Made by a program: the position numbers and the translations under genes. Below are positions 30,942-31,070 of a stretch of 64,000 bases of DNA, in pieces. The DNA is from Escherichia coli (lineage in GTDB: Bacteria; Pseudomonadota; Gammaproteobacteria; Enterobacterales; Enterobacteriaceae). Within the stretch, counting starts at the first letter, position 1; the number at the start of each line of letters is the position of its first letter. Under the pieces are notes generated by a model. It worked only from the letters and a program-made list of their open reading frames with translations. It did no database searches and was not told the origin of the DNA. Location: the NCBI RefSeq assembly GCF_013122565.1, contig NZ_CP053258.1; one strand, given 5' to 3'.

Positions 30942-30972
30942 ACGGTGGTTGCCGGATAATAGGCGCGGATAT

Positions 30973-31056
30973 GTAGGCCTGATAAGACGCGCCAGCGTCG
31001 CATCAGGCATCGAGAGCCAAATGCCAGATGCGGCGTGAACGCCTTATCTGGCCTAC
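30973..31056. repeat. REP elements (BIME-like pair) in the ybaL-gsk intergenic region
   Basis: gtaggcctgataagacgcgccagcgtcgcatcaggc and gccagatgcggcgtgaacgccttatctggcctac match the canonical E. coli REP palindromes. Confidence 0.65.
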
Positions 31057-31070
31057 GAACCGACGATAAC

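Follow-up and report, generated by a model that had tools for sequence, protein, structure and literature searches.

A single Y + Z2 REP pair in the 3' UTR shared by the convergent ybaL and gsk genes of Escherichia coli: composition, variation and probable role

Catalogues of REPs and BIMEs in E. coli go back decades. A REP is defined as an imperfect palindrome that follows a GTAG and has an AA/GC bulge in its stem, and these two features are also the reported determinants of binding by TnpA-REP (PMC3333891, PMC8266576). Counted with the GTAG, the palindromic units measure 35 nt (y), 29 nt (z1) and 37 nt (z2) (PMC8266576); a TGCC|TGAT cleavage site is typical of Z units (PMC3333891), and example unit sequences are given in PMC11208160. 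The BIME-2 class of Gilson, Bachellier and Hofnung, summarised by Ton-Hoang et al. (2012, PMC3333891), joins inverted Y and Z2 units across a short linker and occurs in tandem copies. RIP or BIME-1 elements combine Y with Z1 around a long L linker that carries an IHF site. REP325/naRNA4, in the co-directional yjdM-yjdN operon, consists of six tandem Y-linker-Z2 units and is reported to be a partly Rho-dependent terminator as well as an mRNA stabiliser (bioRxiv 10.64898/2026.03.23.713779). Finally, the REPINs of Bertels and Rainey (2011, PMC3116915), defined in Pseudomonas, are inverted REPs with identical arms and a short spacer.

The REP pair described here lies in a 64-kb window of E. coli DNA (the whole stretch that was analysed), in the gap between ybaL and gsk. 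Both genes were called from the open reading frame list and RefSeq annotation, and their names were taken from the RefSeq annotation at near-identical E. coli loci. The features of the locus are as follows.

29265-30941, plus strand: ybaL, putative K+ efflux transporter, 558 aa
30942-31070, no strand: intergenic gap ybaL-gsk, 129 nt, from stop codon to stop codon
30950-30965, no strand: REP-like fragment, TGCCGGATAA(TA)GGCG, adjoining the ybaL stop codon
30973-31056, no strand: the whole BIME/REPIN-like unit, with a predicted minimum-energy fold of one long hairpin on either strand
30973-31008, minus strand: REP1, Z2-type palindromic unit, 36 nt
30976-31053, minus strand: Rfam RF02564 (naRNA4) match in gsk sense, scoring 80.7 bits (gathering score 59.5)
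31009-31022, no strand: linker, 14 nt, ATCGAGAGCCAAAT, between two GCC(N)GATG ends, without IHF consensus
31023-31056, plus strand: REP2, Y-type palindromic unit, 34 nt, with CTAC at 31053-31056, a TGAA loop and the AA/GC mismatch on the minus strand
31057-31070, minus strand: spacer from the gsk stop codon to the GTAG of REP2, 14 nt, GTTATCGTCGGTTC in gsk sense
31071-32375, minus strand: gsk, inosine/guanosine kinase, 434 aa, convergent with ybaL

The gap is bounded exactly by the stop codons of ybaL (TAA, 30939-30941) and gsk (31071-31073, on the complement). As the REP pair lies wholly within it, the pair is extragenic and belongs to the 3' UTR of both genes, that of ybaL extending into it. 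The first-pass annotation had proposed a REP/BIME cluster between the two convergent genes, with two inverted palindromes filling the gap. The cluster, its place and the inversion are borne out by the consensus match and by an RF02564 score above the gathering score, while the filling holds for most of the gap and not for all of it, the pair taking up 84 of the 129 nt. Part of the remainder is the REP-like fragment, recognised by reading the sequence, which is possibly the remnant of an older REP. It runs into the most polymorphic stretch among E. coli alleles (30957-30972, in an alignment with K-12, O145 and Z226-7), and in the polymorphic part of 30950-30972 the window is GC-rich where K-12 is AT-rich. 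Compared over 5 kb with 5,426 complete E. coli genomes, the window shows no more than 98.9% identity to any one of them and so represents an Escherichia/Shigella lineage outside that set.

Two minus-strand open reading frames that overlap the gap (30609-31010 and 30854-31108) were set aside as mechanical artefacts lying inside or antisense to ybaL. A sigma-70-like match, TTATCA-18-TATTAT (9/12), occurs at 30956-30985 on the minus strand, within the Z2 REP and its flank, and points antisense into ybaL; it is probably a chance match in the sequence, three such matches being found in 800 nt against 0.9 expected. The RefSeq annotation of MG1655 lists no repeat features at gsk-ybaL, which is uninformative because positions 5000-6500 of that genome, presumably the site of a RIP element, have none either.

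Scanned against the REP consensus, both units match. REP1, which reads GCCTGATGCGACGCTGGCGCGTCTTATCAGGCCTAC on the minus strand, follows the Stern consensus GCCKGATGCGRCGY-N4-RCGYCTTATCMGGCCTAC without a mismatch; in plus-strand coordinates its GTAG end occupies 30973-30976, and its stem arms, 30977-30990 and 30995-31008, enclose a GCCA loop and contain the AA/GC internal mismatch. REP2 reads GCCAGATGCGGCGTGAACGCCTTATCTGGCCTAC on the plus strand and has one mismatch per arm. The variant arm that had been noticed in the second copy, GCCAGATG, is indeed there and owes its character to A31026; the partner arm, CATCTGGC, carries T31049. Because T31049 compensates A31026, the stem is still paired, as A:T. 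The two units are inverted relative to each other: the GTAG/CTAC ends point outward and the GCC(N)GATG ends oppose one another across the linker. The GTAG and the AA/GC bulge are present in both, in the DNA as well as the RNA folds. The GCCTGATG unit, at 36 nt, agrees with Z2 (37 nt), as does the GCC(G>A)GATG unit, at 34 nt, with Y (35 nt), and these lengths, together with the TGCC|TGAT signature and the published example sequences, assign REP1 to the Z2 type and REP2 to the Y type.

Such matches are far from what composition would yield. The right-arm consensus (18 nt, at most 2 mismatches) has 3 sites in the 64-kb window against 0.02 expected from shuffles, and the left-arm consensus (14 nt, at most 1 mismatch) has 4 sites against 0.58 expected. 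A third full REP was found elsewhere in the window by the consensus scan. Across complete E. coli genomes, a 329-nt query of the locus hits 3-28 places per genome (median 12), as befits many dispersed copies. The A:T variant of the Y unit (GCCAGATG...CATCTGGC) itself has a median of 2 sites per genome. It recurs at moeB-fsa (L061, 1155-1238, strain CE10), there in the same Z2-linker-Y layout with a 13-nt linker, and at yejK-rplY (L062, 1201-1234), both of them convergent gaps. This recurrence points to a small dispersed subfamily and not to a local mutation.

Judged by its sequence, the element is a single BIME of BIME-2 composition (Y + Z2), an ordinary member of a long-known family. It shares with BIME-2 the inverted Y and Z2 units in alternating orientation (REP1 on the minus strand, REP2 on the plus strand), the short linker of 14 nt, the GTAG and AA/GC bulge in both units, and an extragenic position at 3' gene ends. 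It differs in that only one pair is present, in the window as in K-12-type alleles, and no tandem array; further, its Y unit has A:T where the consensus has G:C, and its linker sequence is not that of REP325. With REP325/naRNA4 it has in common the Y-linker-Z2 order in the same register and the 3' UTR location, but it is one unit between convergent genes, whereas the six units of REP325 stand in tandem within a co-directional operon, and the linkers are unlike (AUUUGGCUCUCGAU against AAcGGUGCCGACU), that of ybaL-gsk departing, in the Rfam alignment, from the 'l' linker of REP325. The RF02564 match of 80.7 bits is accompanied by one of 58.3 bits on the plus strand, just under the gathering score. 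As the RF02564 model is the 77-nt Y-linker-Z2 unit of REP325 and in effect fits any Y-linker-Z2 pair, its score indicates family resemblance, not function. Matches to Rfam mir-3913 and snoU13 in the gap lay far under threshold and were dismissed. Elsewhere in the window, Rfam matches at gathering level were obtained for the DnaX frameshift element (38976-39040, minus strand, 96.8 bits), sroB sRNA (25216-25299, minus strand, 82.1 bits) and the small SRP RNA (55844-55940, minus strand, 68.1 bits), all of them expected for this region of E. coli.

The likeness to RIP/BIME-1 is limited to an inverted REP pair at 3' gene ends. Both hallmarks of that class, the long linker with an IHF site and the 29-nt Z1 unit, are absent from the gap, and the short linker and the missing IHF consensus place the element outside it. 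An element of the BIME-1/RIP type does occur in the window at 42340-42437. It is composed of a 29-nt Z1 REP (42340-42368, plus strand) and a Y REP (42404-42437, minus strand), with CTAC/GTAG ends inward and a 35-nt linker that contains an IHF-like site, ATTCAATATATTG (42379-42391, minus strand).

Either REP can form a hairpin alone, with predicted energies of -18 to -21 kcal/mol as RNA and -11 to -13 kcal/mol as DNA (REP1, -20.5 and -12.9 kcal/mol, respectively) and a 2x2 AA/GC internal mismatch after the GTAG. The minimum-energy prediction, on both strands and for RNA and DNA, is nevertheless one long hairpin in which REP1 pairs with REP2. At -52.4/-52.9 kcal/mol for the two strands, against -41.7/-40.8 kcal/mol for two hairpins, it is predicted to be about 11 kcal/mol more stable than the separate structures, and the fold-energy z is about -4 relative to shuffles on both strands. 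When folding of the growing transcript was predicted, the first REP hairpin appeared earliest and could rearrange later. The modelled long hairpin is of REPIN geometry (PMC3116915). The locus thus resembles a REPIN in its inverted REPs, short spacer and single long predicted hairpin, but its arms are of different types (Y and Z2) where the REPINs of Pseudomonas have identical ones, and the long hairpin contains several internal mismatches for this reason.

With these properties, the element is best explained as a BIME-2-type, REPIN-like doublet that most likely serves as a 3'-UTR hairpin, would block exonucleases, may contribute partially to termination and would owe its origin to handling by a RAYT. 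Transcription of ybaL or gsk would produce a hairpin at the 3' end of the mRNA, against which 3'-to-5' exonucleases would be blocked. The same hairpin would probably help to halt read-through into the opposing gene, in a partly Rho-dependent and not an intrinsic manner, so that the pair would serve both genes as a 3'-UTR stabiliser and attenuator, with an effect that is modest and varies with context. In origin and turnover it would be a non-autonomous element, acted on as single-stranded DNA by the REP-associated tyrosine transposase (TnpA-REP/RAYT). By analogy with the REP family, 3'-end protection and limitation of read-through are the most likely functions. REP325 supplies the precedent described above. 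In the same 2026 preprint (bioRxiv 10.64898/2026.03.23.713779), convergent genes flank about 60% of REPs, such gene pairs have elevated expression, and a role at convergent pairs is suggested genome-wide; because terminal REPs had no general effect on half-life genome-wide in that study, the effect at ybaL-gsk is probably modest and dependent on context. The supplements of this preprint, of Ton-Hoang et al. 2012 and of RepRanger do not mention gsk or ybaL, except in an unrelated differential-expression row.

The first-pass annotation had listed mRNA stabilisation, termination and the binding of gyrase or IHF as possible activities. These are traits of the REP family at large, and some of them do not suit this copy. 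Protection of the mRNA 3' end, partial Rho-dependent termination and gyrase binding are plausible at ybaL-gsk by analogy, and the other items fare worse, as discussed below.

The strongest competitor to a functional 3'-UTR hairpin is that the pair is a neutral or selfish REPIN which persists in a permissive convergent gap because it is harmless, with no effect on the expression of ybaL or gsk. This reading is a real possibility, if the less probable one, and it is compatible with the main explanation and does not exclude it. It draws on the variation at the locus. With presence scored as at least 80% coverage of the 329-nt query, the pair is found in 4,658 of the 5,426 complete E. coli genomes. 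About 2,000 of these 4,658 share the left flank of the window; the K-12 flank, different over 30957-30972, is present in most of the remainder. A further 583 of the 5,426 genomes have another, non-orthologous layout, whose basis is one REP of opposite orientation; in some strains this REP has been joined by a second and the array has grown to four units (L005). The gap therefore takes at least three non-orthologous forms in Escherichia: a single REP, the outward pair, and an inward pair that has been amplified one to three times. Such turnover speaks for neutrality, as does the recurrence of the Z2-linker-Y(A:T) layout at moeB-fsa, which would be expected of a dispersed mobile unit. The inward pair (GTCGGATGCGGCGTAAACGCC... 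+ GCCGGATGCGATGC..., with CTAC/GTAG ends inward; L005, 341-548, and L010, L020 and L042) is not orthologous to the outward one, and its tandem amplification in the gsk-ybaL gap extends across Escherichia lineages.

Insertions are also tolerated. REP1 holds the exact natural target of IS621, ATCAGGCCTAC (30973-30983, minus strand; target sequence from PMC11208160), and in 36 of the 5,426 genomes (e.g. E. coli 1190, L004, 219-1499) IS621 sits within the GTAG-proximal tail of the Z2 unit. IS1397 occupies the hairpin loop of the Z2 unit in at least one genome, that of strain 405 (L006, 2596-4032). Both known REP-targeting insertion sequences, of which IS621 is a bridge-RNA recombinase element, have thus been caught in the Z2 unit of this BIME in natural strains. 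Further, a stem mismatch goes uncompensated in the copy of K-12 (GTAGGCATGAT). Since loss, replacement and insertions are tolerated and K-12 carries this mismatch, any function of the pair is dispensable, and over evolutionary time the element is mobile. The lack of a genome-wide half-life effect of terminal REPs (bioRxiv 10.64898/2026.03.23.713779) is likewise in keeping with neutrality.

However, a purely neutral element sits less well with the wider comparison. A codon scan for the C-terminus of gsk in species-representative genomes recovered 53 loci. The number of REPs in the gsk-ybaL gap of Escherichia species is one, two, four or six, and Citrobacter has a single REP-like hairpin in a gap of 48-51 nt, or tandem arrays. 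In Buttiauxella and Huaxiibacter, the gap contains arrays of a different GC-rich palindrome; those of Buttiauxella izardii (L057) and Huaxiibacter chinensis (L052) consist of 255-336 nt of tandem palindromes of the CCCTCTCCC...GGGAGAGGG type. Judging from these sequences, the gap habitually holds palindromic repeats, different ones in each lineage. Nearly every sampled enterobacterial genus keeps a strong palindrome, even where the gap measures only 48-50 nt, in Citrobacter, and this suggests that a hairpin at the gap is useful. The higher expression of REP-containing convergent pairs (bioRxiv 10.64898/2026.03.23.713779) also argues against neutrality and in favour of the 3'-UTR hairpin.

A second alternative places the effect at the end of gsk translation, where a REP 14 nt past the stop codon would stall the terminating ribosome and provoke mRNA cleavage and trans-translation. 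Down-regulation of translation has been reported for REPs that lie fewer than 16 nt from a stop codon (Liang et al. 2015, cited after PMC12306157), and purine metabolism is named there among the genes with stop-proximal REPs. The gsk stop codon at 31071-31073 is 14 nt from the GTAG of REP2 (31056), within that limit as the summary gives it, and the stem of the long hairpin begins at this very G. In the two-hairpin fold, however, the first pair forms at 31052, 18 nt from the stop codon and beyond the reported limit, and gsk is absent from the searchable supplements. Attenuation of gsk in this manner is viewed as unlikely.

A classical bidirectional intrinsic (Rho-independent) terminator might be expected from a strong GC-rich hairpin between convergent genes, and 78 REPs fall inside previously predicted bidirectional terminators (bioRxiv 10.64898/2026.03.23.713779). 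Yet the tails after the hairpin in the window allele are not U-rich (GAACCGACGAUAAC on the plus strand, AUAUCCGCGCCUAUUAUCC on the minus strand), and a terminator scan of 30600-31400 returned no hairpin with a U-tract on either strand. Because no U-tract follows either hairpin, the termination proposed in the first pass is unsupported in its classical intrinsic form. The K-12 allele speaks somewhat for it, since its hairpin is followed at once, in gsk sense, by the U-rich AUAUUUUUCAUAUUUUAC where the window has AUAUCCGCGCCUAUUAUCC. The terminator scan of the K-12 allele also found none; this tail was read by eye because the scanner is blind to a long composite hairpin. For the window allele, an intrinsic terminator is quite improbable.

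It is more doubtful still that the locus gives rise to a nucleoid-associated RNA of the naRNA4 kind, or organises the chromosome as a cruciform or gyrase site, or both. The RF02564 match exceeds the gathering score, Y + Z2 is the class reported as a strong gyrase binder (as cited in PMC2817692), and HU and naRNA4 have been reported to bridge cruciforms (PMC4550694). Against this stand the breadth of the RF02564 model, as noted above, and the presence of a single pair in place of a tandem BIME-2 array. Further, REP325/naRNA4 had no measurable effect on nucleoid compaction and REP-REP contacts were absent in the 2026 preprint (bioRxiv 10.64898/2026.03.23.713779), where the biological role of naRNA4 is itself disputed. 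Finally, a RIP/BIME-1 element recruiting IHF, which has in its favour that the first-pass annotation named IHF binding as a family property, can practically be dismissed, because the linker is only 14 nt long and no match to the IHF consensus WATCAANNNNTTR with at most 1 mismatch occurs anywhere in 30942-31070, and in addition the composition is Y + Z2 and not Y + Z1 and the BIME-1-like comparison with a 35-nt linker and IHF-like site sits elsewhere, at 42340-42437.

The ybaL-gsk REP pair is already known in kind, lies at the same locus in most E. coli and holds nothing surprising for specialists. Its value beyond a correct annotation is small, and this copy behaves like other REPs. The locus is, nonetheless, a compact natural example of REP turnover, with at least three layouts in Escherichia and both IS621 and IS1397 in one unit. 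The outward Y + Z2 pair with or without a U-rich tail, the single REP, the amplified inward pair and the IS621 or IS1397 insertions may be candidate expression alleles. It is a speculative and rather unlikely prospect that the strain differences at the gap are natural expression alleles for gsk, a purine-salvage kinase, and/or ybaL, and that, in addition, gsk translation in the window allele is attenuated by ribosome stalling at the REP 14 nt from its stop codon. Whichever way this falls, the allele series would offer a ready test bed for the tuning of 3'-UTR termination and stability by REPs, with the coding sequence untouched.
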